From Elusimicrobiota bacterium (lineage in GTDB: Bacteria; Elusimicrobiota; Elusimicrobia; UBA1565; UBA9628): a stretch of DNA of 64,000 bases. The notes beneath the pieces were generated by a model. The model saw only the letters and a program-made list of their open reading frames with translations. It did no database searches and had not been told where the DNA came from. Within the stretch, counting starts at the first letter, position 1. Every line of letters begins with the position of its first letter. Positions 6,979 through 39,385 of this stretch are shown piece by piece. A program made the position numbers and the translations under genes. The DNA lies in NCBI GenBank assembly GCA_027319565.1, contig DAHVNA010000001.1, forward strand, positions 114,716 to 178,715, in the 5' to 3' direction.

Positions 6979-8581
6979 ATGGGCCTTTGGGATAAAGGCT
7001 CCCAAGGTTTCTCAAAATCTGGGCATTTACCTAAGCCCAAGCGTGGCCTATATTGCCCAATCCCATCTCAACAAAGGCCGTTTGGTTTTAGATCAGCTTT
7101 TTCGCGTGGCCCTTCCTAAACCTAAAGTCGTGGCTCCGCCTAAGGAAGCTTCTCAAATGCCGGGAGTGGAGTTGTGGGGAGATTTTAACGATATTTTGGA
7201 CGTTTTGCGCCCCTCTATAGGCAAACTGGTCAATGCGCCAAAGGAGGTCGTGGTTTCTCTCTCTCCGGAACTCAGTCTCCTTCGTTATTTTCAGATGCCT
7301 CAAATTGAGCAAAGATTTTGGAAAACGGCAATTCCTTTGGAGGCAAAAAAACATATTCCTTTCGCCTTTCAAGGCCTTACCAGCGATTTTCAGGTTTTTC
7401 CTTCTGCGGTTTCAACCCCGGAGGGAAAAACGATGCAGGGGGTCTTGTTCGCCGTCACGTCTAAATCGACCTGGGAAGGCGTTAGAGATTTAATGAAGGG
7501 GTTGAAATTAGAGATGGTGGCCATGGAGACCAGCGTCAACTCTTATTTGAGATTTCTGCTGTCCATGGATAAAGGGATTGCGGATCCTGCTTGCCTTTGG
7601 GTCCATTTTTCCGATGTGAAGGTTCGCATTGTCGGATTTGCAAAAGGAATTCCGCTTTTGTTTAGAGAAGCTGATTGGTATCCCAATGGTGATCTAAGGA
7701 CGCTAGGACTTCCCAGCCTGGTTGATTTTATCAGCCATAAATTAAATTTGGGGTCCGTGCAAAAGTGCTTAGTTAGCGGCGCAGCCAATGAGTCTATCAT
7801 TGCGGGGCTTTCCCAGGAGATAAATCTGAGAGGGGAACCCAAAAACCCTGGACTTCCATTAGGGCTTAAGGGCGGAGATTTTGAGTCTTATGCCGCCATT
7901 GGCGGTTCTTTCCGTTTTACCGCTCCTTCTCCCGCCAATATCGATTTTTCCGCGGCAATGAAGGTGACTGATGGCGAGAGAAAAGCGGCGATGTTTGTTT
8001 TTGGGGCTTCAGTTGTTGTCGCCGTACTTTTTATCGTTTTAGGCTTGTTCTCAGGTGTCCAAGTTTTCATGCAATCACGGGAACTTTCAGGAATTAAAAG
8101 AGACCCGCATGTCGAGGCCCTCTTTCGCGGAAAATCCCAGGGGGATATACAAAAGATGATCTCTAAAATAGAAAAAGAAACGGCTTTTTTAGGCGGCGCC
8201 AGTAATAAAAAAAATGACCCTTCTGTTTTCCTTGAGGATATCGCTGCTTCCATTCCCGAAAACCTTTGGCTGACCGATATAAAACTGGATAATCCCTTAC
8301 CACGGCCAGGGCGCAACATAGGGCAGGGTATGACACTAAAATTATCTGGATATTCCACGGCCGATTCGCGGATGGGGGAAGAAGAAGACGCCAAAAACTT
8401 TAAAGAAGCTCTTGAGGAATTGCCTGATTTTAAAAGATTTTCCGTTCAGATACAATTGCAGAAAGGGCAAAGCCAAAGCATGTTTGGGGGTCTCAATAAA
8501 GACCCGTATGAAGCGGAGCGGCAGCGCGAGAAAAGAACGGGTTTTGATATTACCATTCAGCCGCGATACGATTTAAATTAA
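6956..8581 (+). CDS. pilM: Type IV pilus assembly PilM (actin-like ATPase fold) fused to a PilN-like TM + periplasmic segment.
   Basis: PilM-like N-terminus GIYLSPSVAYIAQ. A single TM at the C-terminal third (MFVFGASVVVAVLFIVLGLFSGVQVF) is followed by a PilN-like periplasmic region (ENLWLTDIKLDN...MTLKLSGYS). Position immediately upstream of the pilO/pilP/pilQ homologues. Confidence 0.6.
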   Translation: MDEKFIDEWAFGIKAPKVSQNLGIYLSPSVAYIAQSHLNKGRLVLDQLFRVALPKPKVVAPPKEASQMPGVELWGDFNDILDVLRPSIGKLVNAPKEVVVSLSPELSLLRYFQMPQIEQRFWKTAIPLEAKKHIPFAFQGLTSDFQVFPSAVSTPEGKTMQGVLFAVTSKSTWEGVRDLMKGLKLEMVAMETSVNSYLRFLLSMDKGIADPACLWVHFSDVKVRIVGFAKGIPLLFREADWYPNGDLRTLGLPSLVDFISHKLNLGSVQKCLVSGAANESIIAGLSQEINLRGEPKNPGLPLGLKGGDFESYAAIGGSFRFTAPSPANIDFSAAMKVTDGERKAAMFVFGASVVVAVLFIVLGLFSGVQVFMQSRELSGIKRDPHVEALFRGKSQGDIQKMISKIEKETAFLGGASNKKNDPSVFLEDIAASIPENLWLTDIKLDNPLPRPGRNIGQGMTLKLSGYSTADSRMGEEEDAKNFKEALEELPDFKRFSVQIQLQKGQSQSMFGGLNKDPYEAERQREKRTGFDITIQPRYDLN

Positions 8582-8585
8582 TTTT

Positions 8586-9175
8586 ATGGCTATGGATATT
8601 AAGGATATCAATAGAAAAATTCGCCATTTGCAGCGAGATTTTGGCGATACTATTTTTGTTCTCCAAAATAAGGGACTTAAGTATTTCCAACGCGTTTGGT
8701 TGGCGGCGCTTCTCATTTGTTTGTACCCTATAAATTCTTTTATCAATCGATGGATAGTAGAATTTCGTCATTAGAGATGAGAATTAAGACAGCCCGGGCC
8801 ACTAATAAATATGCCAAGACCTATAACGATGCCATGGAAAATCTTCTCGTCGTTGAGCGCCGCCTTCCTCCGGCAAGCAAGGGGACCGGGTGGTTAAGCG
8901 ATATTTCTATTTCTTCTCTCAAAGACGAAAACATTACTCCTGATTCAGTCTCTTCCGTCCATCAAGTTCAAAGCGGAAAACTTATTAAGGAAAGCATCTC
9001 GGTCGATTTTCAAGCGAAATTCCCTGAAATTTTTTCGTGGCTTTATAAGATTGAACACGATCATTATCTGATTCATGTTGACTCTCTGCAGATAAAAAAG
9101 AAAGGGCTCGATGAAAACAAAGTTCATTGCACTCTTTCTACTTTGATTCAGGCTGGATCCGGAGGTAATTCCTAA
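8586..9175 (+). CDS. PilO-like inner-membrane pilus assembly protein, apparently split by a frameshift. A TM-bearing ORF (8586..8774) is followed by a coiled-coil periplasmic ORF (8696..9175).
   Basis: ORF 8586..8774 encodes a short cytoplasmic segment plus a TM (RVWLAALLICLYPINSFI). The overlapping +2 frame continues from about 8750 with MDSRISSLEMRIKTARATNKYAKTYNDAMENLL... for roughly 140 aa. Position between pilMN and pilP. The frames switch near the homopolymeric tcttttatcaatcg around 8738-8752. Confidence 0.35.
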
Positions 9176-9177
9176 AC

Positions 9178-9894
9178 ATGGCTAAAAAGAGTCCTGCGGG
9201 CTGGGTGGTTCTTATGCTTGTTTTAGCCCTTCCGGGACTTGCTTTTTATTTTTGGTGGAATCATTTGGGCGGCAATCATAATGTCACTCAAAAACTCGCG
9301 AAAACACAGCCTTTTTCTCGTGTTTTTAACGCCTCTCCCCCTGGCACTAAGGTCTCAATTCCACGATTTTCTAGCGCTCCGATGGCGCCTGCTTCAAGCC
9401 CTCAAGCCTCGCCGAAATCTCCGGTGGTCGCAAAAACAATGCCCGCAGCTCTTGCCCGACCCGGCGTTTCTACGCCTTCCTCTGTTTCATTGGTCAACGC
9501 AGGAAAGCCGCTTACTACCTCTTCGGTTTCAGCCATGGCTTTAAAACCCGTAGCGCAAAATGGCCAGAAATTAGCGGTTCCAACTTTGAAAAGAGACCCC
9601 ACTCTCTCTCCGACGGACCGACAGGAAATTTATGATTTGCTTCACCCGAAGCCTAAACCCAAGATTGTGCGCCGGAGGATTAAAAAGAAAAAGGGCCCTC
9701 CTATTGAAAGTTTGATTGATTTGTCAGGAATCATTTTTATGTCTCCATCGAATGCCAAGGCGATTATTAATGGAAATCTTATGAAGGTGGGGCAAATGGT
9801 GCATGGGGCTAAGATTATTGAGATCGAAAAACAAAAAGTTATTTTCTCTTATCATGGGCGAAAGGTAATCAAGGTGATGAGCGGTAAACTTTGA
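9178..9894 (+). CDS. PilP/GspC-like pilus assembly protein: TM anchor, Pro/Ser/Ala-rich linker and a C-terminal beta domain.
   Basis: TM anchor VVLMLVLALPGLAFYFWW. Low-complexity P/S/A linker. C-terminal IIFMSPSNAKAIINGNLMKVGQMVHGAKIIEIEKQKVIFSYHGRKVIKVM resembles the PilP/GspC HR domain. Located directly upstream of the secretin. Confidence 0.5.
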   Translation: MAKKSPAGWVVLMLVLALPGLAFYFWWNHLGGNHNVTQKLAKTQPFSRVFNASPPGTKVSIPRFSSAPMAPASSPQASPKSPVVAKTMPAALARPGVSTPSSVSLVNAGKPLTTSSVSAMALKPVAQNGQKLAVPTLKRDPTLSPTDRQEIYDLLHPKPKPKIVRRRIKKKKGPPIESLIDLSGIIFMSPSNAKAIINGNLMKVGQMVHGAKIIEIEKQKVIFSYHGRKVIKVMSGKL

Positions 9895-27224: not shown

Positions 27225-27662
27225 ATGAACTATCATCTAAAACGGATTAATCCATATTGGCATAATCATCCCATGATTCCCACCGGGGTCGTGGTGGGAG
27301 TTATCTGCGCGGCCATGGGCTTTGCCGCTCAACGCCCGGCTATAGAAATCGTAGGAGTGTCGATCGCGGGATTATCTCTCTTTGTCGCGGTCAAGCCCGT
27401 CTTTTCCCTCTTGTTTTCTTTGATTGGGCTTTTTGGAGGAGTCAGCACGTTTTTGATCGCCCCCGGGCTTAACGCCGACAGCTTGACGCCACCGCTTAAG
27501 TTTATTTCCATTCTTCTATTCACCGCGTTTTATGCGGCGCTCATGGACGCGATGCTTTTGGTCGTGGCGGTGATTTATAATTTCCTGGTCGGCCCTGGGG
27601 GCCTTTCCGGGCTTCATCTTGAATTATCCGAGGCGGAGGCGGAAGAAGAGGTCGAGGGATGA
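27225..27662 (+). CDS. Small membrane protein (4 TM) with an acidic C-terminal tail. First gene of the signalling operon.
   Basis: Hydrophobic segments. Its stop overlaps the start of the OmpR-like gene (ATGA). Confidence 0.35.
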   Translation: MNYHLKRINPYWHNHPMIPTGVVVGVICAAMGFAAQRPAIEIVGVSIAGLSLFVAVKPVFSLLFSLIGLFGGVSTFLIAPGLNADSLTPPLKFISILLFTAFYAALMDAMLLVVAVIYNFLVGPGGLSGLHLELSEAEAEEEVEG

Positions 27663-28483
27663 AAATCAACGCCATTTACGCCTCGCGCGAACCCAATCGC
27701 GCAGCAGTTTTAATTGAAGCGTTATCGGCCAATCAGTTCGCTGTGTCTGTGGCGCAAAAATCCAAAGAGGTTTTGGATCAACTCTCTAAGCAGAACGCTA
27801 GTCTTCTTTTAATGGGAGAAAAACTACTTGATGCTGACGGAGTTTCATTCGTTAAAAACCTAAGGGCCAAAGGGGCTTATAAGCAAATGCCGGTGGTGGC
27901 GGTCGTCGAACATGGAGAAACCCAGGCGGTTGCCCCGCGGCGGAGCGCATATGCGGCCTTTGGGAAAAAGCCCGTTGACGCCATTCGCGTCAAATTTTCC
28001 GGCGAGGGAACTTCAAATGGAGTGGCCGCTTCCGCGTCTTCCCAGGCGAGCATTCGCCTCGCGTTTTTTAACGCGGGAGCGGATGAGTGTCTTTCTCTGA
28101 ATTGGGATGCGGCGGAATGTGTTGCCCGCATCAAAGCTCTTTTGAGGCGCACCCAAACGGTTCCTTCCGAAGAAATCATCAAGATGGGGCTTATCGAACT
28201 TAATTTGACAAGTTACACCCTTCATATTGGCGGCAAAAAAGTTAATTTAACTTCTAAGGAACTCGATTTGCTTTATGTTTTCCTAAGTTCGTCAAATCGC
28301 GTTTTAAGCCGTCCGTATTTAATTGAGCGCGTCTGGGGATATAACTATTTCGGGTCTCCGCGGACGGTGGATGTTCATGTGAGGCGTTTGCGGGAAAAAT
28401 TAGGCCCGGCGGCAAAGTACGTGACGACCATCCCTTGCGTGGGATATAAATTGATTCCCCCAAGTTCTGAAATGCGGAGGTAG
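27659..28483 (+). CDS. OmpR/PhoB-family winged-helix regulator with a degenerate (pseudo-)receiver domain.
   Basis: C-terminal trans_reg_C: LTSKELDLLYVFLSSSNRVLSRPYLIERVWGYNYFGSPRTVDVHVRRLREKLG...IPCVGYKL. The N-terminal receiver-like fold has no phospho-acceptor Asp in the expected place (SLLLMGEKLLDADG) and carries a roughly 60-aa insert before the DNA-binding domain. Confidence 0.65.
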   Translation: MKINAIYASREPNRAAVLIEALSANQFAVSVAQKSKEVLDQLSKQNASLLLMGEKLLDADGVSFVKNLRAKGAYKQMPVVAVVEHGETQAVAPRRSAYAAFGKKPVDAIRVKFSGEGTSNGVAASASSQASIRLAFFNAGADECLSLNWDAAECVARIKALLRRTQTVPSEEIIKMGLIELNLTSYTLHIGGKKVNLTSKELDLLYVFLSSSNRVLSRPYLIERVWGYNYFGSPRTVDVHVRRLREKLGPAAKYVTTIPCVGYKLIPPSSEMRR

Positions 28484-28886: not shown

Positions 28887-30767
28887 ATGCCATCATCGGC
28901 TCAAAGAGGCAAACTCGCCTATAAAATTCTTCTCTGGTTTTTGGTCATTTCTCTAATTCCGATGGGAGTCGCCGGGCTCTATTTGATTAATATTTCCCAG
29001 GCTTCTCTTCATCAGCAAATTTTGGGGACGGAAAAATCCTTGGCCGAGAGTTTTGCCGAAACGGTCTATAAATATATCGCGACCTATCGGGATATTCTGG
29101 AAGAATCCGCGGCTTTGCCGCAATTTGTTTCGGGAAATAAAGAAGAGGAAGAGTCTTATCTCAAGCGCCTGATGAGCCTTCATGTCGCTATTTTAGAGCT
29201 CTCGGTTTTGGATTCTTCCGGCCATGAAACGATTCGGGAAGGGCGATTCCTCGGGCCCAACCCGCAGTTGCGCGATATGGAATCGGAGGGTTTTTTCGAT
29301 ACGGCTTTGGCGCGGGGGGAATTTATCGGCGGCCTTAAACGCTTTCAAGGCATTTATCCGACGGTGACAATCGCGGTTTCTATCGGATCGCCGAAATCGG
29401 GGCACACTCCCTTGGGAGTCTTGGCGGCTAAAATCAGCCTCAATGGACTTTCTTCAATGTTGTCCATGGAGTTTCCGCCTTCCAGCCAAACCTCGGCCGC
29501 CGTGGCCGCCCCGGACGGATTTCTGATCGCCCACTCCGATCCGGAAAAAGTTTATAAGCCGGACGCGCGTTTAAACAGCGAGATATTAAAAATTTTAACC
29601 ACCCAGGTCGCTGATTCCGGCGGGGGAGAAATAACCCTTTCCGATGGGAAAAACTTTTTAAGCGCTTATGCCGATGTCAATGGTTTGGACTGGATCGTCT
29701 ATGTTCAAGAGTCTATTCAAGCCGCCTATCATACGGCGGCGCGAATGCGCTCGCAGATTTTGCGGCTGTTGGTCTGGGTGATTATCGCGATTATCGTTTT
29801 ATCCTTGGCGGTTTCAAGGCATATCACGCAGCCATTAAGGGCTCTTAAGGACGCGGCTCGAAAAGTCGGCATGGGGCAATTTGAGGATTTCCCGGAAGTC
29901 CTTACCACTAACGATGAGATTGGAGATCTGGCCCAAGCGTTTTTGTCGATGAGCGAGTCGTTAAAAGAAAAAACCGGGGAACTGGTCGACACTAAACAAG
30001 AGCTTGAACGCTTGAACCGGACCCTTGAAAAGCGGGTCGAAGCGCGCACAAGAGAACTTAAAGCGGCGCAGGAAGAATTGATCAAAAAAGAGCGCTTAGC
30101 CGCGATCGGACAGATGGCTTCGGTGGTCGGCCATGAGATACGCAACCCGTTAGCCGTCATCAATAACTCGATTTACTTTATTAAAACGAAATTGGCGTCT
30201 GTCTTGGCGCAGGACCCGAAAGTCTCAAAGCACGTCAAAATCATAGAATCCGAGATTCAACAGGCCAATGGGATTATCAACGAGATATTGACCTATTCAC
30301 GGCAGCGCGAGCTTCAGCCCGAGACGGTTCGGCTCAATGATTGGCTGGAAGAGCTTCTTTCGGTGTATCCATTTCCTTCTCATATTACGGTTCAAAAAAT
30401 TTTCGTTCCCTCCAATCCGCCGGTTGAAATCGACTTGACCGAGATGCAGCAAGCTTTAAGAAATTTAATTGGGAACGCCATTGAGGTGATGCCGGAAAAA
30501 GGGATTTTAGGCGTTAAGACGTTTTTGTCTCAAGCCAACATGGCGGCTATCGAGATTTCTGACACCGGGCCCGGCATTCCCCCGGAGACGCTTGAAAAAA
30601 TATTCGCGCCATTTTTTACTACCAAGGCCCGCGGAACGGGCCTGGGGCTGGCGGTCGTAAAAAAAGTCATCGATCGCCACGGGGGAAAAGTGGAAGTGGC
30701 TAGCGTCGTGGGGCGCGGGACTATTTTTCGTCTCCATATTCCGATTTCCCAGAAGGTGGAAGCATGA
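28887..30767 (+). CDS. Sensor histidine kinase with a periplasmic (Cache-like) sensor domain, HAMP, HisKA and HATPase_c.
   Basis: Two TM segments flank a roughly 270-aa periplasmic domain. HAMP follows TM2. H-box ASVVGHEIRNPL. N, G1 and G2 boxes (GNAIEVM, DTGPGIP, GTGLGLAVV). Confidence 0.85.
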   Translation: MPSSAQRGKLAYKILLWFLVISLIPMGVAGLYLINISQASLHQQILGTEKSLAESFAETVYKYIATYRDILEESAALPQFVSGNKEEEESYLKRLMSLHVAILELSVLDSSGHETIREGRFLGPNPQLRDMESEGFFDTALARGEFIGGLKRFQGIYPTVTIAVSIGSPKSGHTPLGVLAAKISLNGLSSMLSMEFPPSSQTSAAVAAPDGFLIAHSDPEKVYKPDARLNSEILKILTTQVADSGGGEITLSDGKNFLSAYADVNGLDWIVYVQESIQAAYHTAARMRSQILRLLVWVIIAIIVLSLAVSRHITQPLRALKDAARKVGMGQFEDFPEVLTTNDEIGDLAQAFLSMSESLKEKTGELVDTKQELERLNRTLEKRVEARTRELKAAQEELIKKERLAAIGQMASVVGHEIRNPLAVINNSIYFIKTKLASVLAQDPKVSKHVKIIESEIQQANGIINEILTYSRQRELQPETVRLNDWLEELLSVYPFPSHITVQKIFVPSNPPVEIDLTEMQQALRNLIGNAIEVMPEKGILGVKTFLSQANMAAIEISDTGPGIPPETLEKIFAPFFTTKARGTGLGLAVVKKVIDRHGGKVEVASVVGRGTIFRLHIPISQKVEA

Positions 30768-31912
30768 CAGAACCGAAGGCGCGTATTCTCATTGTCGATG
30801 ACGATCCCCATATCCGCGAATCTCTGTTGGATGTTCTGGAAGACGCCGGTTACGAGGTTTTTACGGCCTCCAGGGAGAAAGAGGCCTTGGACAAGGTTCA
30901 CTCGCATAGTTTTGACGTGATCTTGATGGATTATAATCTTCCGGATTCAACCGGAATCCAGGTGATCAAGAAAATCAAAAAAATTAGGCCGATTGATTCC
31001 CAAAGCCAGATATTGATGCTTACCGCGGATAAAAGCCAAGAGACGGCGGTCATGGCCATTCAGGAATCCGTGGCGGATTTTCTCGTCAAGCCGGTTGATG
31101 TCGATCGCCTTAAACGAGTCATTTCAAATTCCCTGGAAAAGCTTCGCTTGATTCGGGAAAACGAGAGAATAACGCTTCAGCTTAAGAAAAGCAACGAGGA
31201 ACTCGAGCATTTGGACCGGATGAAATCTAAATTTCTCTCAATGTCTTCGCATGATTTATCCAATGCCTTAATGGCTCTTCAGGCCAGTTTTGAACTTCTT
31301 TCTCAAACGATGAACCCCTCGGAAGAGCAGACAAAAAGAATGCTCGCTATTTCTTCCAGCATCAGCCAATTAACTCGCCTGACCGCCGATTTAGTCGACT
31401 GGGCGTCCATTGAAAGTGGAAAATTCAGAATTGAGCGGGAAATCTGCTCTCCAGAAACTCTGCTACGGGAAATCTTGCTGGGTTCTCAAGCTCGCGCGCA
31501 GGCGCGGGGAATTAAGTTTACGGAAAAAATAGAAAAATCCTTGCCCGATATTTATGCCGACAAGAGGCGTATTTCCCAGGTTCTTAATAACCTGCTTGAA
31601 AATGCCATTCGCTACACTTCCAAAGGCGGAGAAATTCTGGTCTATGCGATGAAACTCGCCAACGGCAATGCGGAAACCGCGATTCAATTTGGAGTTAAAG
31701 ACTCCGGAGATGGGATACCGCCAAGCGAACTCGGTAAAATCTTCCAAAGTTTTTATCAAGGCTCCGATTCCTCTAAAAGCGGACGCCTGGGGCTGGGATT
31801 GGCGACTTCTAAAGAAATTGTCGAGGCTCACGGCGGAAGGATCTGGGTTGAAAGCGAAGGAGTCGGGCGCGGCGCGACTTTCTTTTTTACGGTTCCCACC
31901 TCGAAAAAATGA
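30764..31912 (+). CDS. Hybrid response regulator-histidine kinase (REC + HisKA + HATPase_c), cytoplasmic.
   Basis: RILIVDDDPHIRESLLDVLEDAGYEV...VILMDYNLPDSTG. H-box SMSSHDLSNAL. HATPase boxes NLLENAIRYT, DSGDGIP and GRLGLGLATSKEIVEAHGGRIWVESEGVGRGATFFF. Confidence 0.85.
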   Translation: MTEPKARILIVDDDPHIRESLLDVLEDAGYEVFTASREKEALDKVHSHSFDVILMDYNLPDSTGIQVIKKIKKIRPIDSQSQILMLTADKSQETAVMAIQESVADFLVKPVDVDRLKRVISNSLEKLRLIRENERITLQLKKSNEELEHLDRMKSKFLSMSSHDLSNALMALQASFELLSQTMNPSEEQTKRMLAISSSISQLTRLTADLVDWASIESGKFRIEREICSPETLLREILLGSQARAQARGIKFTEKIEKSLPDIYADKRRISQVLNNLLENAIRYTSKGGEILVYAMKLANGNAETAIQFGVKDSGDGIPPSELGKIFQSFYQGSDSSKSGRLGLGLATSKEIVEAHGGRIWVESEGVGRGATFFFTVPTSKK

Positions 31913-33975
31913 CGACTTTTCGCCGATGGGGGCGGCTTTTCTTGCCTCTCGCTTTTATTTCCTGCGCGACAGTCAAAGTTCCCATGTCGGTAACGTTTCC
32001 GCCGGCCATCGATTTGTCTCCTTACCATCGCTTCGCTTTTGGCGACATGAACGGCAATCTCGGCCATCGTTTTCAAGACGCTTTGGAAAGTTATTTGTCG
32101 CGCTCCAAAAATTTTAATTTCATAAATAGAGACCGGCTTAATGTGTTGACTGCGGAATATGACCTGACTCAGGCGCAAAATTCAGCGGATGCTCAAATGA
32201 ACGCTATTGCGATGAAGGTTCATGGCGCGGCGTTTATTTCGGGAACCATTAATCAAAATTATTACCAGTTCATTCAAGAGTCGCCGGATACCTGTCAATG
32301 GAATAACCGCGCTCATCCCTGCCCGTTAAAAACACGGGTCGGGCGGATTCGCATCGGCGGGCATTTGGATGTGACAAGTGCCGTAAGTGGAAAATTGATT
32401 CACTCCCAAGCGATATCAAAAGTTTGTCAGGCTCAGAGCCAGGCCAAAAACGCTTCTCCGCCTCCCATCGATCGCTCGCAGTTGACGCAAAATTGCGTTA
32501 ATTCCGCGGCGCGGGATTTGGCGATGCTTTTTTTGCCCTCAAGGAAAATGTTTTATCCAAGTTTCATAAAAGTGGGGGATATCCCGGCGGTGGCCCGGGG
32601 AATTGGAGATGTGGAGGCCGGAGACATAGCCCAAGCGGCCAAGGATTTTAACGCGGCCCTTAAAGATCCCAAGGTCGGCTCTAGGGATTTTGATAAAAAG
32701 TCTTTGTCTGAAATCTATTGGGATCTCGCGTTGGCCCAAGAATATTCCTGGCAGTTTGGGCCGGCCTTGGATTCCCTCAAGAAATCATATGCGCTTAACC
32801 CGGTTTTAAAAACGCAAAAAGAAGAATCCCAGCTTCTTAATTTTGAATCCGCGCGAAGACGGCTTTTAGGCGTTACTCCCCTGATGCTGGCGGTCGAAGG
32901 TGGGGCTTTTCATCAAGTTCAAACTCTTCTTCAAAAAGGCGCGGACCCTAATTTGCAGGATGCCTCGGGAAATACGGCCTTAATGCGCGCCGTTCAGAAA
33001 CAGAACTTGGCGATGGTCCAAATTCTTCTTCGCCATGGGGCTTGGCCCACGATTAGAAATAATCAAGGACTGAGCGCTTTGGATATGTCTAAAAATCCAA
33101 AAATTTCCGATCTGTTGAGAGAAGATTTTTCAAAACCTTCGGTTTCCCATCCAGAAAAGCCCGCGCGGCCTTCAAAAATCGTAATTCATTCCGATGTGGA
33201 TAAAATTCCTTACCATCTTCCGGAAGACCCGTTTAAAATCGCACTGGTCGTCGGCATTGAACACTATGAAAACAATCTCCCATCGGCTGATTTTGCCGAC
33301 CACGACGCCGAAGTCATGCGCGAGCATTTAATGGCTTTGGGCTATGCTCCGCGCCATATCCATTGGCTCAAAGATGAAGAAGCGACTCGCGCGGCCTTGG
33401 TCAAAAATTTTGAGGGCTGGCTGCCTCAAGTCGTTTCCTCATCTTCTACCGTTTTCTTTTATTACTCCGGTCACGGGGCCGCCGATCCGCAGACGCATAA
33501 AACTTATTTGGTTCCAGCGGATGGAGATCCCAATTATCTTCAAGAAACGGCTTATCCTCTTTCCCGTCTTTACTCGACTCTTGGAAAATTATCCGCAAAA
33601 CGGGTGATTGTCGTTTTAGACTCTTGCTTTTCAGGCCGCGGCGCGAGGTCTTTGTCTCCCACGGGAATGCGGCCTTTGGTGACCGTCTCTCCATCCGCGC
33701 CTATTTCAAAAGGGAGGGTTGTTGCCATGACCGCTGCTTCCGGGACCCAGATCGCGGAAGTTCTTAATTCCGAGGGCCATGGCTTGTTTACTTATTATTT
33801 TTTGAAGGGCCTTAATGGCGCGGCCACAACGCCAGTGAAAGTCATTACCTTGCAATCTCTCTATCATTATTTAAGGCCCGAGGTCGAAGACGCCGCAGGC
33901 CTTAAAAACCGGACTCAGACGCCGGAGTTTTTGCCGCAAAGACTTCTGAATGCGGCGCCGATTGTCTTGCGATAA
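31909..33975 (+). CDS. Lipoprotein with a CsgG/LpoB-like N-terminal domain, ankyrin repeats and a C-terminal caspase-like (peptidase C14) domain.
   Basis: Lipoprotein-type signal (RLFLPLAFISCAT). CsgG-like segment HRFAFGDMNGNLGHRFQDALESYLSRSKNFNFINRDRLNVLTAEYDL. Ankyrin units TPLMLAVEGGAFHQVQTLLQKGADPNLQDASGNTALMRAVQKQNLAMVQILLRHGA. Caspase His/Cys dyad in FFYYSGHGAADP and VIVVLDSCFSGRGA. Confidence 0.7.
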   Translation: MTTFRRWGRLFLPLAFISCATVKVPMSVTFPPAIDLSPYHRFAFGDMNGNLGHRFQDALESYLSRSKNFNFINRDRLNVLTAEYDLTQAQNSADAQMNAIAMKVHGAAFISGTINQNYYQFIQESPDTCQWNNRAHPCPLKTRVGRIRIGGHLDVTSAVSGKLIHSQAISKVCQAQSQAKNASPPPIDRSQLTQNCVNSAARDLAMLFLPSRKMFYPSFIKVGDIPAVARGIGDVEAGDIAQAAKDFNAALKDPKVGSRDFDKKSLSEIYWDLALAQEYSWQFGPALDSLKKSYALNPVLKTQKEESQLLNFESARRRLLGVTPLMLAVEGGAFHQVQTLLQKGADPNLQDASGNTALMRAVQKQNLAMVQILLRHGAWPTIRNNQGLSALDMSKNPKISDLLREDFSKPSVSHPEKPARPSKIVIHSDVDKIPYHLPEDPFKIALVVGIEHYENNLPSADFADHDAEVMREHLMALGYAPRHIHWLKDEEATRAALVKNFEGWLPQVVSSSSTVFFYYSGHGAADPQTHKTYLVPADGDPNYLQETAYPLSRLYSTLGKLSAKRVIVVLDSCFSGRGARSLSPTGMRPLVTVSPSAPISKGRVVAMTAASGTQIAEVLNSEGHGLFTYYFLKGLNGAATTPVKVITLQSLYHYLRPEVEDAAGLKNRTQTPEFLPQRLLNAAPIVLR

Positions 33976-34069
33976 ATTTTTCAATGGATGAGCGATTCCA
34001 TGCAAACTCATCTGGCATTGGATAATTCTAGCACGTGTGGGGGATTTTGGAAAGTGCTAAAATTCCACA

Positions 34070-35122
34070 GTGGGATACTTAAAAGGACTCGCGAAACGGG
34101 CGGAAGAAAGCGGTAAGGCGTATTTAAGGTCTCAATTTTTTAGGTTTTTACCGGTTTTGCCTCCGCCCAAGACTCCGGTCGACGTAAAAGCTGTTTCCCG
34201 CATTTTAGCCGTTCGTTCCGACGCGCGCTTAGGAAATATACTTCTTTTAACTCCGGCTCTGCGCTTAATTAAAGAGGCTTTTCCATCCGCACAAACGGAT
34301 ATCTTGATGCCGCAAGCTTATGCCGCGGCCTTAAAATTTAACCCTTGCGTCTCCCGGGTTTTAAGTCCCAAAGAATGGCCGCTTCTGCGCTTTTTCGGTT
34401 ATGATCTCGCTTTTGATTTTTCCTCCTACCATGCTTTTTCTCTCTCGGGTGCGTTGTGGAGCGCTTGGTCCGGTGCGCGCTGGAGGTTGGGATATCAACG
34501 TGGGGAATCGGATAGATTCATTAATATGCCTGTTCTCTGCCCTCGGGAAAAATTTCATGAGACCGTTAATTTAGCGCGCCTGGTGCGCGAGGCGGCGGGA
34601 AGGCCTTTAAGGCCCGATTCGGATTTAAGGCTTGAGTGGCATTGGGGTCCCGGTGAAAAAGAAGAGGGAGAAAAATTCTGGCGAAATCAGGGGTTGGATC
34701 AAGAATCCGTGGCTCTGTTCATCGGAGCTCGGGATCAGAAGCGACTCCCGCTGGCCTGGTTTTTAGAAATAGCCTCTCTTTTGCGCGCCCAGGGGAGAAA
34801 AACCGCTCTTCTCGCGGGTCCTGCGGAAAGACGTTTGATTGAGAATGTGTCCTTGCCCGTAGAGACGGTTTTACTGCCGGAGATGCCTTTAAGAAAATTT
34901 GCCGCCGCTTTATCCAATGCGAGAGCGGTTTTAACGGCCGACACGGGGCCGATGCATCTTTGCGTTTCTCTTAATATTCCGACGGTCGAACTCTTTAGCC
35001 ACAGCGAGCCTTGGAGGTTTGGCTATTCTCATTGGCCTTCCCATCGGGTGATAGAGACCCCAGGCCGATGGGCGGAAGTGGGAGAGGTCTGGCCGGTTTT
35101 ATCAGGGCTTCTTAACCGTTGA
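34070..35122 (+). CDS. Family 9 glycosyltransferase (ADP-heptose:LPS heptosyltransferase-like).
   Basis: ILAVRSDARLGNILLLTPALRLIKEAFPSAQTDILMPQAYAAALKFNPCV is a GT9 N-domain. C-terminal TADTGPMHLCVSLNIPTVELF is a GT9 nucleotide-sugar-binding motif. Confidence 0.7.
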   Translation: MGYLKGLAKRAEESGKAYLRSQFFRFLPVLPPPKTPVDVKAVSRILAVRSDARLGNILLLTPALRLIKEAFPSAQTDILMPQAYAAALKFNPCVSRVLSPKEWPLLRFFGYDLAFDFSSYHAFSLSGALWSAWSGARWRLGYQRGESDRFINMPVLCPREKFHETVNLARLVREAAGRPLRPDSDLRLEWHWGPGEKEEGEKFWRNQGLDQESVALFIGARDQKRLPLAWFLEIASLLRAQGRKTALLAGPAERRLIENVSLPVETVLLPEMPLRKFAAALSNARAVLTADTGPMHLCVSLNIPTVELFSHSEPWRFGYSHWPSHRVIETPGRWAEVGEVWPVLSGLLNR

Positions 35123-36073
35123 GGCTTGAGCTTTCGGAATAATCTTGCGGAGCGGACCTGAAATCATCGCGGGCTTGGTTTTTACCGGGCTCAATTGCGG
35201 TTTCAGGCGGATTTTAGGCTTGGGCTTCTGCGGGAGAAGATTGTCGATTTCATATGCTGAAACGAGAACCACGATGTTTCGGTCCAGGGATTTCGCGTAG
35301 TAATAAAGAGGTTTTCCCGATTTAACGGGTTGCGGAGTTCCAATAATCCATTCAATATTTTCCTTCCCGTCTTGCGCTTTGAAAGTAAAAAGTGGCTTTT
35401 TAAAGGGGTTTTTCTTTGGCAAATCTTGATCGACAAATTCTGTCGCGCGCAGGCCAAAGACGCTCGGCCAGGTCGGGCTTGAGGGATAGAGAGTGTAGCT
35501 TTTTCCGCGTCTGGGTGCGACCTCGATTGACTTTGGAATTCCGTAGGATCTCGGGAAAAAAGCGCGTTCTCTAAAATTATCTGGGTCCTGGGTGAGTCTC
35601 GAGGCATTGAGGCCGGAAGTGATATAAATTTCCGGGCGATTGGTGTACCTGAAATAAGCGGAATTCCAGCCGAAGGCCTGCCGTCCAAAATAGCCGTCTA
35701 AAATGGGTTTGGGGCTAATAGCCGCGTAAGCGATGAGGTGCGCGGCCGATGTAGAAATTCCGTAATCCGCATAGGAGGATGGGTTTTTAGTCGCGACATC
35801 TTCAAGAATAATTTGCGGGAGAGCTTCCACGATTTGAGATACAGAGTCTGGATCCGCCAAATCCGCCACCGGCTTTTGAACCTTCCAAGCGCCTTTGTCT
35901 TTGACCAGTTCGACTGATTTTCCTTGATAAGAAATATCTAGTTTCTCAATCTGATTGGCTTTGACTCCTTCGAGGATGGGGGCGCGCGTGATGCGGGCGT
36001 TGTCAATGGCGATCCAAACTAAGGCGCCGAAAGTCGCGAGGAAAAGAGCGGAAAGAATTAAAATTTTTTTCAT
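35102..36073 (-). CDS. DUF4340-like secreted protein. Last gene of the GldG-type ABC transporter operon.
   Basis: Signal peptide. Position directly downstream of the GldG-like auxiliary component matches the usual arrangement with these transporters. The family call is from recalled context, not a strong motif. Confidence 0.45.
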   Translation of the reverse strand: MKKILILSALFLATFGALVWIAIDNARITRAPILEGVKANQIEKLDISYQGKSVELVKDKGAWKVQKPVADLADPDSVSQIVEALPQIILEDVATKNPSSYADYGISTSAAHLIAYAAISPKPILDGYFGRQAFGWNSAYFRYTNRPEIYITSGLNASRLTQDPDNFRERAFFPRSYGIPKSIEVAPRRGKSYTLYPSSPTWPSVFGLRATEFVDQDLPKKNPFKKPLFTFKAQDGKENIEWIIGTPQPVKSGKPLYYYAKSLDRNIVVLVSAYEIDNLLPQKPKPKIRLKPQLSPVKTKPAMISGPLRKIIPKAQASTVKKP

Positions 36074-36078
36074 GGCTT

Positions 36079-37695
36079 TTAAGAGGAGATGGGAGTCGGT
36101 TCTTGTTGATGCGCTTCTTCTGCGGGAGCGGTGTCTGCGCCGTAGAGCGAAATCATTTTGCGCCTTCTCTTCATTTGTCTGCGATAACTAAACGCGCCGT
36201 AGACTAAAAGCATACAGGGTAGGAAAAGAATCATTCCATATTTGACCAGTAGACGCATTTTGTCGGACAAGGGCCTGAGAGGCCGATAGGTCATGCCTTT
36301 CCCGCGAATGGAGAGTAAATCGCTGTCCTCACAAGACCACTCAAGAAGATTTTCCAAAAAGACCGCGCTTGTCTGGCGATTGGCGAAATGAGAATCTAAC
36401 ACGTAAGCGGTCGCAATCACAATGGCCCGCGCGGATTTATGCGGAGTCAAAGATGGGGTTCCCGCAGGAGCGGGAAATTGCCCGGAAACTAACCCCGCCA
36501 GCGAGAAAGGCCCGCGCCGGTCTTTCGCCAAATTGGCGGAACTTTGCGTGATGCCGATGTTGTAGGAATTTTTAAGCCAGCTGTTGGGACTTGAGTCCAC
36601 TAAAGATTCGTATTTGAGTCCATTGACTGCGGCGGTTGAAGCGAAAATGGGGTGCACAAAGGGCAAGGTAACGCCTTGAAGATGCTCGACGGCGGGGTTG
36701 GAAGAATCAAAATGGGTGGCGACCGGTATGTAAGGATATTGCTGAATTCTCATCGCGACAAATTGGCCGATATTTTGTTGAAATTCGACATTTTCCGATT
36801 GGGCGTCGACGACAAAGCCATTGGGAATATTGAGCCCCCAGTCTTTTAGAAGCGGTCCTAAACCCAGACTCATCGGCGCGCTATAAAAGGCTTGGAAATT
36901 AACCGAGCGCCGATTAAAGAGAATTCCCAAGGGCTTTCCTTCAAACAGCCAATTTCTCAGGGCTTCAATGTCTTGGTTTTTAAACTTTTGAGTGGGACCT
37001 AAAATCCACAGAGCCGAGACATCGGAGGGGATTGCGGAGCTAAGATCGACGGTCTTTAAATTGAGGTCTTCCCGAAGCGGAGCAAAGAGGTTAGATGCCG
37101 AGGGGTCTCCCGGGTTTTTTTCGCCATGCCCAACGACAAAGCCTACGGTCGGAAGGACCGGATCGGCGAGTTTTTTGATGCGGCTGGTGATTTGATACTC
37201 CAAATCGGAGGTGTCTTGTAAAAAGGGAATAACCTGACTGCGCCCTTTATAAAGGAGAGCGATTCCCATATAGGCGGTTTTGACCTCGAATTTATCTTTG
37301 GCCATCACGTTCACCTGGACCGGGGAAATGCCCAGCGCCTGAGCGTCGTCTTTTCTTTTTTGAGATTCGTTGGGATCCAAAAATTCAACCGTAATATGCC
37401 CGTGGGCCGCAGATTTATATTCGCCTAAGAGATCGCGGAGATAATTTTCATTGAGCCCGTAGGGCGGGGGAAGATTCGGAGTGAAATAGACCTTGACGAT
37501 CAGGTTGTCGGTTAATTTTGAGAGGATATGTTTAGTTCCCTTGGATATGGAGAAGATGTGTCCGGAGGAAAAATCCATTCGGGAATAAACGTAATAGGAA
37601 ATTCCGTTGACGGCGGCCAATGTCCCAATCAAAAGCAAAGTGCCTAAGCCGGAAAACAGAAGTTGCCGGAATTTGGTCTTGGGTTCTTGAGACAT
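36079..37695 (-). CDS. GldG-like ABC-transporter auxiliary component (ABC_transp_aux domain), bitopic at both ends.
   Basis: N-terminal TM, large periplasmic domain and C-terminal TM (ILFLPCMLLVYGAFSY), the GldG architecture. Start overlaps the permease stop. Confidence 0.65.
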   Translation of the reverse strand: MSQEPKTKFRQLLFSGLGTLLLIGTLAAVNGISYYVYSRMDFSSGHIFSISKGTKHILSKLTDNLIVKVYFTPNLPPPYGLNENYLRDLLGEYKSAAHGHITVEFLDPNESQKRKDDAQALGISPVQVNVMAKDKFEVKTAYMGIALLYKGRSQVIPFLQDTSDLEYQITSRIKKLADPVLPTVGFVVGHGEKNPGDPSASNLFAPLREDLNLKTVDLSSAIPSDVSALWILGPTQKFKNQDIEALRNWLFEGKPLGILFNRRSVNFQAFYSAPMSLGLGPLLKDWGLNIPNGFVVDAQSENVEFQQNIGQFVAMRIQQYPYIPVATHFDSSNPAVEHLQGVTLPFVHPIFASTAAVNGLKYESLVDSSPNSWLKNSYNIGITQSSANLAKDRRGPFSLAGLVSGQFPAPAGTPSLTPHKSARAIVIATAYVLDSHFANRQTSAVFLENLLEWSCEDSDLLSIRGKGMTYRPLRPLSDKMRLLVKYGMILFLPCMLLVYGAFSYRRQMKRRRKMISLYGADTAPAEEAHQQEPTPISS

Positions 37696-38447
37696 TAGCT
37701 AATTCTCCTGTGACTGAGCTTTTGCGCGGTCAGATAGAGAAAGATGAAGATAAACGACGCGAAATAGAGAATATCCCGGGTATCCAAGACGCCTTTTCCC
37801 ATCGTCTGCATGTGGGAATCCAACCCGATGAAATCAAGGATGCTCGAAAGTCCGGTGGGAAGAAAAATGGCGAATTTTCCGATCACGACAAAGCTAAATC
37901 CGATTAAGAAAGCGGTGATGAAAGACACGATCTGGTTTTTGCTAAAAGAAGAGGTGTAGAGCCCCGCCGCTCCAATTAAGAGACCTTCAAAAGTCAACGC
38001 GCAAAGAGTTCCGATGGATTCTCCCCAATCCAGATGGGCCGGAGGGGCCACCAAAAACGCGAGACCAACCGCGAAAAACAAAAGCGCGGCAATGACGAGG
38101 GTATAAAGAGAAGCAAAGCCGAGATACTTTCCCAGGACGATATCCCAATCTTCTAACGGGAAAGTGGCCAGCGTTTCAAAAGTTCCGGATTTTAATTCTT
38201 CCGAGAGAAGGCCCATGGTCAAGGCCGGGACAAAGAAAGAGAGGATGATGGGCTCAAAGTCGATGAGGGTTTTAATGGTCGCCTGCCCGACCAGGAAAAG
38301 AGGCGCCATAAACAAATACCCAGTTAGAAGATAAAAAACAAACAAAGCGACATAGGTCGACGGCGATTCCAAAGCGACGCGAAGGCCCTTGTGCGCCAGG
38401 GCTTTGACGGCGTGAACTTGAAACAGCGGTTCTTCTTGCGTTTTCAT
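37695..38447 (-). CDS. ABC-2 family permease (GldF-like).
   Basis: Six TM helices with the ABC-2 pattern. Lies between the ATPase and the GldG-like gene. Confidence 0.65.
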   Translation of the reverse strand: MKTQEEPLFQVHAVKALAHKGLRVALESPSTYVALFVFYLLTGYLFMAPLFLVGQATIKTLIDFEPIILSFFVPALTMGLLSEELKSGTFETLATFPLEDWDIVLGKYLGFASLYTLVIAALLFFAVGLAFLVAPPAHLDWGESIGTLCALTFEGLLIGAAGLYTSSFSKNQIVSFITAFLIGFSFVVIGKFAIFLPTGLSSILDFIGLDSHMQTMGKGVLDTRDILYFASFIFIFLYLTAQKLSHRRIS

Positions 38448-38452
38448 TTTGA

Positions 38453-39385
38453 TTAGTTTTGAGTGAGGTTCCTGAAAATCTCTTCCAGATCTTGCCTGTC
38501 TTTTCTTAATTCCAAAATCGGCCAGCGTTTTTCAGCGGCCAGGTTGAAGAGATCTTCCCGAACGTCGGTCTTGGCCGAGGCGTCAAAATAAAACCCCGGT
38601 TCCTTGGGGTTGTGGATGGCCTCTTCTGCCGATGACACGCCGGGCAGTTTTCTTAAAGCGGATAAAATTTCGGAGGCCGGCCCTTTGAGAGAAACAAAAA
38701 AACGGATTTGAGAGTTTTTTCCGCCGGAGCTGATTTCTTCTGAGCTTCCCTCCGCGACCAAGCGTCCGTTGTTGATGATGATGAGCCTATCGCAGAGGAC
38801 TTTCGCCTCCGAGAGAATATGGGTTGAAAAAAGAACGGTCTTTTCCCGTCCAAGTTCGCGGATGAGATCTCGTACTTCATGAACCTGATTGGGGTCCAGG
38901 CCCGAGGTCGGTTCATCCAGGATGAGAACTTCCGGGTCATGGAGAATCGCTTGCGCCAGGCCCACGCGCTGGCGAAAACCTTTAGAGAGTTCGCCGATTT
39001 TCCGCCCCAAGGCGGATCTGAGCCCGCAGGCTTTGACGGCATAGGCAATGCGCTCGCGCTTTTTTTCGCCGGAGATTCCTCTTAGATGTGCGGCTAATTC
39101 TAAACTCTCCGCGACTTCCAAGTCTTCATAGAGAGGATTATTCTCTGGCAAATAGCCCAAATGGCGGCGCGCTTCCATGGGGTTTTCTGAAACATCAAGA
39201 TCGAGAATCTTCGCGTGCCCATCGTCTGCCGGGAAAAAAGAAGTCAAAAGCCTCATCGTGGTCGTCTTTCCCGCGCCGTTGGGACCGAGAAATCCGACAA
39301 TACGGCCTTGCTCGACTTTGAAGCTTAAATCGTCGACAGCAGTTCTTTCTCCAAATTTTTTCTTTAAACGAATCGCTTCAATCAT
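38453..39385 (-). CDS. ABC transporter ATP-binding protein (GldA-like).
   Basis: Walker A GPNGAGKTTT. Signature LSKGFRQRVGLA. Walker B LILDEPTSGLD. H-loop. Confidence 0.9.
   Translation of the reverse strand: MIEAIRLKKKFGERTAVDDLSFKVEQGRIVGFLGPNGAGKTTTMRLLTSFFPADDGHAKILDLDVSENPMEARRHLGYLPENNPLYEDLEVAESLELAAHLRGISGEKKRERIAYAVKACGLRSALGRKIGELSKGFRQRVGLAQAILHDPEVLILDEPTSGLDPNQVHEVRDLIRELGREKTVLFSTHILSEAKVLCDRLIIINNGRLVAEGSSEEISSGGKNSQIRFFVSLKGPASEILSALRKLPGVSSAEEAIHNPKEPGFYFDASAKTDVREDLFNLAAEKRWPILELRKDRQDLEEIFRNLTQN

Follow-up and report, generated by a model that had tools for sequence, protein, structure and literature searches.

Within a 64,000-nucleotide stretch of the genome of an Elusimicrobiota bacterium (assembly GCA_027319565.1, contig DAHVNA010000001.1, positions 114,716 to 178,715; hereafter the window), we analyzed a forward-strand gene at 31909..33975 that encodes a 688-residue lipoprotein. 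The predicted product combines a domain of the CsgG/LpoB superfamily, a tetratricopeptide repeat (TPR) pair, three ankyrin repeats, and a caspase-fold domain of peptidase family C14. The best explanation of our data is that this protein is probably an envelope-tethered cysteine endopeptidase of the C14 family, specific for Arg/Lys and acting on envelope proteins. The open reading frame (ORF) extends from an ATG to a stop codon at 33973-33975 and contains the YYSGHG and LDSCFSG motifs, exactly as described in an earlier note made from the DNA letters alone. The gene model agrees with the ORF list, with eight full-length relatives, and with the orthologous loci.

The catalytic domain and its predicted specificity

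The catalytic domain occupies residues 443-688 (33235..33972, + strand) and adopts the caspase-hemoglobinase fold. Peptidase_C14 (PF00656) matched residues 443-675 at E=3e-16; the score of 60.3 bits compares with a cut-off of 21.4, and the alignment spans positions 2-224 of the 233-position model. This Pfam result, far past the cut-off, answers the check that the earlier note had proposed. The closest solved structure by sequence is the bacterial protein GSU0716 (3BIJ; E=2e-3), whose SGHG and DSCHSG motifs align with the query. The catalytic residues are His522 (codon 33472..33474, + strand, in FYYSGHGAAD) and Cys573 (codon 33625..33627, + strand, in VLDSCFSGR), both placed by translation, by the 3BIJ alignment, and by their invariance among related proteins. 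With His and Cys in canonical motifs aligned to GSU0716, sequence and fold together uphold the caspase domain first read from the DNA.

An AlphaFold model built from the eight orthologues alone was unusable (mean predicted local distance difference test score, pLDDT, 40.5). A second model, built from alignment A3, is good for the ankyrin and caspase regions and only moderate for the N-terminal domain. In this model the caspase domain has pLDDT values of 90-98, except in the loop after the catalytic Cys. A Foldseek comparison with the MALT1 caspase domain gave E=9e-10 and a template modeling (TM) score of 0.74 relative to the target, so the structure prediction called for in the earlier note yielded a confident caspase fold. 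In structure, the catalytic domain is matched best by MALT1 and metacaspases, and legumain is also among the matches. The sequence match to Yca1 reached only E=0.39, and there is no sequence-level membership in these eukaryotic families. Sequence, fold, and dyad all assign the protein to peptidase family C14. Its origin is prokaryotic, and its closest solved relative, GSU0716, is bacterial.

H522, C573, D571 (two residues before C573), and D466 (at the start of helix 1) are each invariant in 72/72 members of the clade. Pseudo-orthocaspases exist in other bacteria, according to one report (PMC6426788), and the window protein might similarly be a non-catalytic scaffold that only binds partners. 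The His, the Cys, and their surrounding motifs are, however, unchanged in all 72 clade members, and no part of the protein is under stronger constraint than the caspase domain, whose ratio of nonsynonymous to synonymous substitution rates (dN/dS) is 0.06-0.09. Both observations contradict a pseudo-protease, which we regard as extremely unlikely.

By motif alignment, we take D466 and D571 to correspond to the S1 residues D365/D462 of MALT1 and D95/D211 of TbMCA2. In having Asp at both mapped positions, the window protein resembles the MALT1 paracaspase and the plant and yeast metacaspases; these differ in that they are cytoplasmic enzymes of eukaryotes and carry death, Ig, or p10/280-loop modules. 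The characterized non-caspase members of C14 all cleave after basic residues, owing to an acidic pocket (PMC5756287). Because D466 and D571 read as S1 residues under this rule, an acidic S1 pocket formed by the two aspartates is predicted, and with it Arg/Lys specificity at P1.

The Arg-containing loop that follows the catalytic Cys includes R580 and R588, both near-invariant among the 72 clade members. By analogy with the caspase inter-domain loop, the segment after C573 is a candidate self-processing or regulatory loop. Elsewhere on the domain, three close orthologues (P0001, P0002, and L005) carry an Ala/Gly/Lys-rich insertion of ~19 residues (e.g. IPEASAHAFAGKAGAAKKNLKE). The insertion point lies in a caspase surface loop at window ~33820-33850 (residues ~640-646), where P0008 has a different insertion.

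Ahead of the catalytic domain lies a variable linker (residues 405-442; 33121..33234, + strand) that has the highest dN of all segments and closes in an S-D-V-D motif (residues 428-431). The four motif residues are conserved in 59-71 of the 72 clade members, depending on the residue. Located ~12 residues ahead of the first caspase strand, SDVD (33190-33201) resembles a classical caspase DxxD site, despite a pocket that predicts Arg/Lys. The linker is preceded by three ankyrin repeats (residues 319-404; 32863..33120, + strand). Five Pfam ankyrin models matched residues 320-395 with E=9e-15 to 9e-8; the motif matches lie over their cut-offs and the segment shows the helix-turn-helix repeat fold, in agreement with the ankyrin assignment made earlier.

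Among known systems, the bacterial C14 caspase homologues (orthocaspases or metacaspase-like proteases) are close counterparts; examples are MaOC1 from Microcystis and, from Geobacter sulfurreducens, GSU0716 (PDB 3BIJ). Orthocaspases are cytoplasmic, whereas the window protein is predicted to be lipid-anchored and extracytoplasmic. The position of the accessory domains also differs: here they are N-terminal of the catalytic domain, while those of orthocaspases are commonly C-terminal (PMC5756287).

Lipoprotein signal and the CsgG-like/TPR module

The translated N-terminus, MTTFRRWGRLFLPLAFISCATVKV, has the features of a lipoprotein signal peptide (residues 1-19; 31909..31965, + strand): a basic n-region with RR, a hydrophobic core, and a lipobox F-I-S-C that closes at Cys19. 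At the level of pattern evidence, the lipobox reads MTTFRRWGRLFLPLAFIS-C19, and the predicted mature start lies after MTTFRRWGRLFLPLAFISC, followed by ATVKV. The Cys and the lipobox are kept in all orthologues with an intact N-terminus, which bears out the lipoprotein status claimed in the earlier note, and no column of alignment A3 is better conserved than that of Cys19 (121/134 rows). A simple pattern test also found a lipobox in 111 of 146 free-standing relatives of the N-terminal module and in 68 of 113 caspase paralogues; several more of the paralogues start with a hydrophobic, signal-like N-terminus.

The whole protein contains six cysteines, Cys19, C129, C138, C173, C196, and the catalytic C573. 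This set and the conserved lipobox are consistent with a protein that is exported and lipid-anchored, forms two disulfides, and keeps one thiol free in its active site. We predict that the protein is extracytoplasmic, lipid-anchored, and facing the periplasm. Our best guess for the anchoring membrane, by analogy, is the outer membrane, where the lipoproteins CsgG and LpoB reside; Ala at position +2 also points that way. A substrate in the envelope, as the earlier note had suggested, fits this predicted location.

The signal peptide is followed by an alpha/beta domain of the CsgG/LpoB superfamily (residues 20-225; 31966..32583, + strand), recognized by Pfam, by the family profile, and in the model; its cysteines C129, C138, C173, and C196 are invariant. 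Next comes a probable helical TPR pair (residues 226-318; 32584..32862, + strand) with a conserved YWDLALAQEYSWQF motif, assigned from family-level TPR matches. The two together form the N-module, of which the TPR pair is the C-terminal third. The domain list of the earlier note was correct in naming CsgG-like, ankyrin, and caspase domains, but it missed the TPR pair.

Domain scans were performed with Pfam and NCBIfam on the whole protein and with Pfam on the N-module alone. The Pfam CsgG model scored 20.1 bits on the whole protein (residues 47-109), below the cut-off of 20.8, and 21.5 bits on the N-module alone, just past it. LpoB (Pfam PF13036 / TIGR02722) remained below its cut-off (13.3 bits vs 22.3, E=0.081), and TPR_2 was weak on the protein itself (13.3 bits vs 27, E=0.093, residues 234-252).

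The family of the N-module provided clearer signals. Profile A2, built from family residues 19-318 and scored against 1.84 billion representative proteins, matched 376 clusters (built at 50% identity) at E<=1e-3, and 191 of them reached E<=1e-10. The best 150 of the 376 are mostly free-standing proteins of ~320-340 residues that cover the profile from position 1 to ~300, starting at residue ~20; the sole long protein among these 150 is P0007, the fusion family's own representative. In a Pfam scan of 96 family members, CsgG was found in 87 (best E=5e-19), TPR_2 in 91, LpoB in 39 (taken at E<=1e-3), and DUF6340 in 22.

In searches against the solved structures of the PDB, the narrow profile A2 retrieved neither CsgG nor LpoB, only weak matches to the TPRs of NASP and TTC5. 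The deep family profile A4 matched consensus TPR proteins down to E=1e-80, and because these TPR hits swamped its list, the match to CsgG structures emerged only with profile A5, which covers the CsgG-like part alone. A5 matched 4uv2, 4uv3, and 3x2r at E=4e-5 over ~125 residues (profile positions 29-153), and the LpoB structure 4q6l at E=0.64. As judged from these profile comparisons, the CsgG-like identity is borderline on the protein alone and convincing through its family. The superfamily relation proposed in the earlier note therefore holds, through the family hits and the CsgG structures, although it is marginal on the single sequence. The N-domain belongs to the CsgG/LpoB superfamily but is neither a member of the CsgG channel family nor LpoB proper, and the LpoB matches among family members appear to reflect superfamily kinship only.

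The cysteines of the N-domain vary in pairs. In the 96 free-standing relatives, counted without phylogeny correction, C129 and C138 are gained or lost jointly (both present in 44, neither in 51, and one exception). On the same basis, C173 is only ever present together with C196. This pattern suggests that the N-domain is probably stapled by two disulfides.

Escherichia coli CsgG (PDB 4UV3, 3X2R) is likewise a lipoprotein with a homologous periplasmic alpha/beta domain. CsgG assembles as a nonamer into a 36-stranded barrel that has a central constriction, and works with CsgE and CsgF (PMC4594475, PMC7304575). The two amphipathic beta-hairpins that each CsgG protomer contributes to this outer-membrane barrel appear, as judged by inspection, to be missing from the window protein. 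The segment aligned to CsgG residues ~128-154, a region of CsgG that includes the first barrel hairpin, is polar (SPDTCQWNNRAHPCPLKTR) and contains the covarying C129 and C138. In the second model, the N-domain (pLDDT ~65-82) has the order beta-alpha-alpha-alpha-beta-hairpin-beta-beta-alpha. It shows a short hairpin at residues 128-137 and a strand at 163-176 followed by a loop and then a helix, with no second hairpin. None of the curli genes csgA, B, E, and F occurs among the neighbors in the window or in its relatives. Because the aligned segment is polar and cysteine-stapled, the model lacks a second hairpin, and no curli genes lie nearby, we consider the CsgG-like domain to be probably soluble and without barrel hairpins, serving as a tether or scaffold and not as a channel.

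LpoB, the outer-membrane lipoprotein activator of PBP1B, offers a second comparison, being a lipoprotein with a small alpha/beta domain of the common superfamily. In contrast to LpoB, the window protein falls below the LpoB cut-off and shows no link to a penicillin-binding protein (PBP); none of the annotated neighboring genes encodes a PBP.

The closest counterparts of the N-module are the free-standing CsgG-like/TPR lipoproteins, P0121-P0269, which are relatives of residues 19-318 (nucleotides 31963-32862). They match the N-module end to end (profile positions 1-300), beginning just after a lipobox, and have the cysteine pattern and TPR motif in common with it. Unlike the window protein, they stop after the TPR pair, and most of those listed are 300-400 residues long; they occur in other phyla. 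Their source names include 'tetratricopeptide repeat protein' (Desulfobacterales bacterium, MBF0120501.1) and 'hypothetical protein' (Nitrospinae bacterium, MBI5178986.1). The genomic contexts of four such relatives contained neither a caspase neighbor nor a recurring partner gene.

The fusion family and the Elusimicrobia caspase clade

Among 5.8 billion protein clusters, eight contain full-length relatives of the 688-residue protein, at 61-93% identity; beyond these eight, scores drop to domain-only matches. Orthologous loci number seven (L001-L005, L079, and L080). L001-L005 come from five species-representative genomes, all of them metagenome-assembled genomes (MAGs) named Elusimicrobia or unclassified 'bacterium'. 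Compared with the seven orthologues, whole-gene dN/dS is 0.09-0.14, and values of 0.06-0.3 in all five domains indicate purifying selection, with the strongest constraint in the caspase domain and the weakest in the linker. The lipobox Cys, the four N-domain cysteines, H522, and C573 are all retained in the family alignment. Since dN/dS is low and the fusion recurs in eight clusters and seven loci, the fused frame is under selection and is not an assembly artifact. Metagenome scans for additional CsgG-TPR-ankyrin-caspase fusion members found none.

One orthologue differs at its annotated N-terminus. In P0004 (L004 7596-8000; alignment A1 columns 1-70), a 23-residue unit beginning CVPCSRSESVPKHLEKRRYDSA is present in perfect tandem triplication before the conserved start. 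This triplication is probably an intergenic DNA tandem repeat that was read through in gene calling and lies outside the true protein.

A search with the caspase domain returned 2,561 proteins at E<=1e-10. The best 120 of these are 277-493 residues long, and the named ones carry the automatic names 'caspase family protein' or 'ankyrin repeat domain-containing protein' from Elusimicrobia. Ankyrin Pfam domains occur in about one third of these 120 and CsgG in none. The closest catalytic-domain relatives are 48-58% identical. ORFs from related loci show a recurring lipobox-ankyrin-caspase plan (L009, L014, L031), with nine repeats in L041; at other related loci a lipobox is followed by an unknown region of ~200 residues and then the caspase domain. 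Taken together, the caspase clade looks mostly lipoprotein or secreted, and hence extracytoplasmic.

The expansion is represented by loci L006-L078 and proteins P0270-P0389, with several paralogues per genome; L023, L024, L028, L053, L060, and L061 all belong to the single MAG PLZD01 palsa_1176. The L041 paralogue (7291-9411) is a 706-residue lipoprotein with approximately nine ankyrin repeats and a caspase domain. It is located on the same contig as orthologue L004 (JAJZCM010000003.1), roughly 10-12 kb away.

The window protein resembles the Elusimicrobia caspase lipoproteins (e.g. P0273, P0287, P0292; L009, L014, L031), many of which share the lipobox-ankyrin-SDVD-caspase order. It differs from them in its 300-residue CsgG-TPR module and in its linkage to two-component genes, the ankyrin-caspase lipoproteins being 400-490 residues long, without the module, and unlinked to such genes. 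The description of this architecture as unusual in the earlier note is thus correct for the added CsgG-TPR module, which is rare, but not for the lipoprotein-ankyrin-caspase arrangement, which is common in the Elusimicrobia expansion.

No N-module was detected in ~150 caspase paralogues, all of which scored <5 bits, compared with 135-263 bits for the orthologue controls. A cryptic CsgG-like domain in the ~200-residue N-termini of other caspase paralogues was considered and ruled out by the same scores. Free-standing N-module genes next to caspase paralogues were absent from all loci analyzed. Because the caspase paralogues lack the N-module, the relatives of the N-module are free-standing, and lipobox-ankyrin-caspase proteins are common, these sequence comparisons identify the protein as a fusion in which a CsgG-TPR lipoprotein precedes an ankyrin-caspase lipoprotein, the latter having lost the signal peptide it once had. 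In the databases searched, the CsgG-TPR fusion is limited to a small family, consisting of the window protein and eight clusters. A 2012 survey of prokaryotic caspase homologues listed none in Elusimicrobia (PMC3501461). In the literature on orthocaspases and CsgG, and on Elusimicrobia and caspases, we found no account of this architecture or of the expansion.

The clade-wide pattern also bears on a different role, that of a surface-exposed or secreted nutritional protease whose paralogues expanded for scavenging of protein or peptides. The gingipains, clan CD proteases that act outside the cytoplasm and are specific for Arg/Lys, have nutritional roles, and legumain is among the structural matches of the window domain. 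A large clade that is mostly lipoprotein or secreted, with many paralogues per genome and varied N-terminal modules, would suit such a function. The ankyrin, TPR, and CsgG/LpoB-like domains, however, are partner or scaffold modules that bind neither bulk substrate nor carbohydrate. Furthermore, the gene lies in a housekeeping and signaling neighborhood, with peptide transporters not among the neighbors. For the window protein, we therefore hold a nutritional role to be unlikely.

Genomic context and proposed function

Two kinase genes lie immediately upstream of the caspase gene on the same strand. The first encodes a sensor histidine kinase (HK) with a periplasmic dCache domain, HAMP, HisKA, and HATPase (28887..30767, +; Pfam), and the second a hybrid kinase (RR-HK) of REC-HisKA-HATPase type (30764..31912, +; Pfam and junction sequence). 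The two kinase genes overlap by 4 nucleotides, and the TGA of the hybrid kinase overlaps the ATG of the caspase gene, again by 4 nucleotides (ATGA). L001-L005 and L080, all the orthologues with upstream sequence, have the three genes in the order HK, RR-HK, caspase; L079 is cut off just upstream of the caspase gene. L080 is a divergent orthologue, with identities of 85% for HK, 69% for RR-HK, and 61% for the caspase. The two overlaps and the conserved order suggest that the caspase gene is probably co-transcribed and translationally coupled with both kinases.

Further upstream are genes for an OmpR-type regulator, SpoIID, RuvB, RuvA, cytochrome c, and TatC. The OmpR-type regulator (27659-28483) has a DNA-binding domain at E=6e-24 and a weak, partial receiver match (E=1.6e-8, residues 15-91), and its receiver may be degenerate.

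On the downstream side, the tight overlapping run extends into queA and tgt in L004, L005, L079, and L080. In the window, a GT9 glycosyltransferase gene and then an opposite-strand set of DUF4340, GldG-like, ABC-2, and ABC-ATPase genes replace queA and tgt. Synteny stops exactly at the 3' end of the caspase gene (window 33976-39385 vs L005 10118-12324, L079 2288-4608, and L080 4598-6843), and window ORFs had no match in the downstream parts of L001-L005.

This gene order raises the question of a role in signaling. The protein could be an accessory part of the co-encoded phosphorelay, contacting or cleaving the dCache domain of the kinase or making its ligand, with proteolysis as the signal input. 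It would then resemble QseG, NlpE, and RcsF, lipoproteins that control their kinases. QseG, a lipoprotein encoded in a two-component operon, binds the kinase QseE in the periplasm (PMC6075780). The overlapping genes, their constant order in every orthologue with upstream sequence, and the periplasmic dCache domain, which would be in the same compartment, are in keeping with such a role. A kinase-like ORF within 500 bp was found at only 1 of 76 non-orthologous caspase loci, which makes the kinase linkage specific to the fusion family. Against this, the synteny may have been inherited and not selected, given a narrow family from related genomes, and the overlaps extend to the housekeeping genes queA and tgt, so that overlap alone implies no shared function. 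We judge an accessory phosphorelay role unlikely, although it is the most plausible of the alternatives, ahead of the nutritional role and of the defense role considered below. A more specific form, in which the protease is the periplasmic signaling partner of both kinases, held by an outer-membrane tether that may oligomerize like CsgG and so activate the caspase domains by proximity, and cleaving the dCache domain or an envelope protein as input to the phosphorelay, appears rather improbable to us.

Many cytoplasmic bacterial caspase homologues have been proposed to act in cell death or anti-phage defense, and a defense response was among the roles suggested in the earlier note. The best NCBIfam model for the protein is indeed the conflict-system model caspase_w_EACC1 (NF047832; E=2.7e-26), and PADLOC gave matches to its generic 'caspase' and 'Ankyrin' models. 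The caspase_w_EACC1 score of 92.4 bits, however, is well under the cut-off of 140. The neighbors are TatC, cytochrome c, RuvAB, SpoIID, and two-component genes, and in relatives queA and tgt; an NTPase, EACC1, or other conflict-system partner was not found among the annotated neighbors. By its synteny the locus belongs to the core chromosome and to no variable or defense island, and the predicted location of the protein is extracytoplasmic. The suggestion of a defense role thus found no support, and we consider an effector of this kind very unlikely. A defense system as the main explanation was set aside, PADLOC having returned generic caspase and ankyrin matches only.

We therefore favor the envelope-tethered, Arg/Lys-specific C14 endopeptidase introduced above, for which the following mechanism is plausible from the sequence features. 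After export and lipidation at Cys19, the protein would hang from the membrane into the periplasm, with the CsgG/LpoB-type domain nearest the anchor, followed by the TPR pair, the three ankyrin repeats, and the caspase-fold domain. The three non-catalytic modules would position the enzyme, bind envelope partners, and present substrates, and the catalytic domain would cut envelope proteins in a limited way, after Arg or Lys. Expression would be coupled to the two upstream kinases. The domain identities and order, the dyad, the fold, the lipobox, the paired cysteines, the origin by fusion, the conserved synteny, and purifying selection come directly from the analysis, whereas activity, P1 preference, the membrane, the type of substrate, and co-transcription are inferred from them.

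Several observations weigh against this proposal or against parts of it. With respect to specificity, the candidate third S1 residue, E617, is acidic solely in the fusion family within the 72-member clade. With respect to the N-domain, the direct CsgG score of this protein (20.1-21.5 bits) sits at the cut-off of 20.8 bits, and that barrel hairpins are lacking was concluded by eye, from the sequence and from the secondary structure predicted in a moderate-confidence model. That N-domain model was built on a partly misaligned alignment, and its TPR region is of low confidence; in alignment A3, MAFFT had set the free-standing N-module relatives under the caspase region. The anchor may also be the inner membrane, or the protein may be exposed at the cell surface. 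As for the operon, the conserved gene order could be simple inheritance among genomes that are fairly close to one another (HK 85-99% identical), and promoter and terminator scans of the locus were at chance level.

On present evidence, the protein represents an interesting architecture variant in a known enzyme family, with no new mechanism or system type. Bacterial caspase homologues are usually discussed as cytoplasmic effectors of cell death or defense, whereas here a whole clade is predicted to lie outside the cytoplasm. The window protein is the most elaborate member of this clade, with a targeting arm made by fusing a widespread CsgG-like/TPR lipoprotein to an ankyrin-caspase lipoprotein. 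Should a functional partnership underlie the fusion, it would be the first functional lead for both families, pointing to a protease at an envelope scaffold. If the signaling interpretation were true, a caspase-family enzyme would serve envelope signaling instead of cell death. The protein is also a tractable candidate for understanding the role of caspase-fold enzymes in the bacterial envelope.

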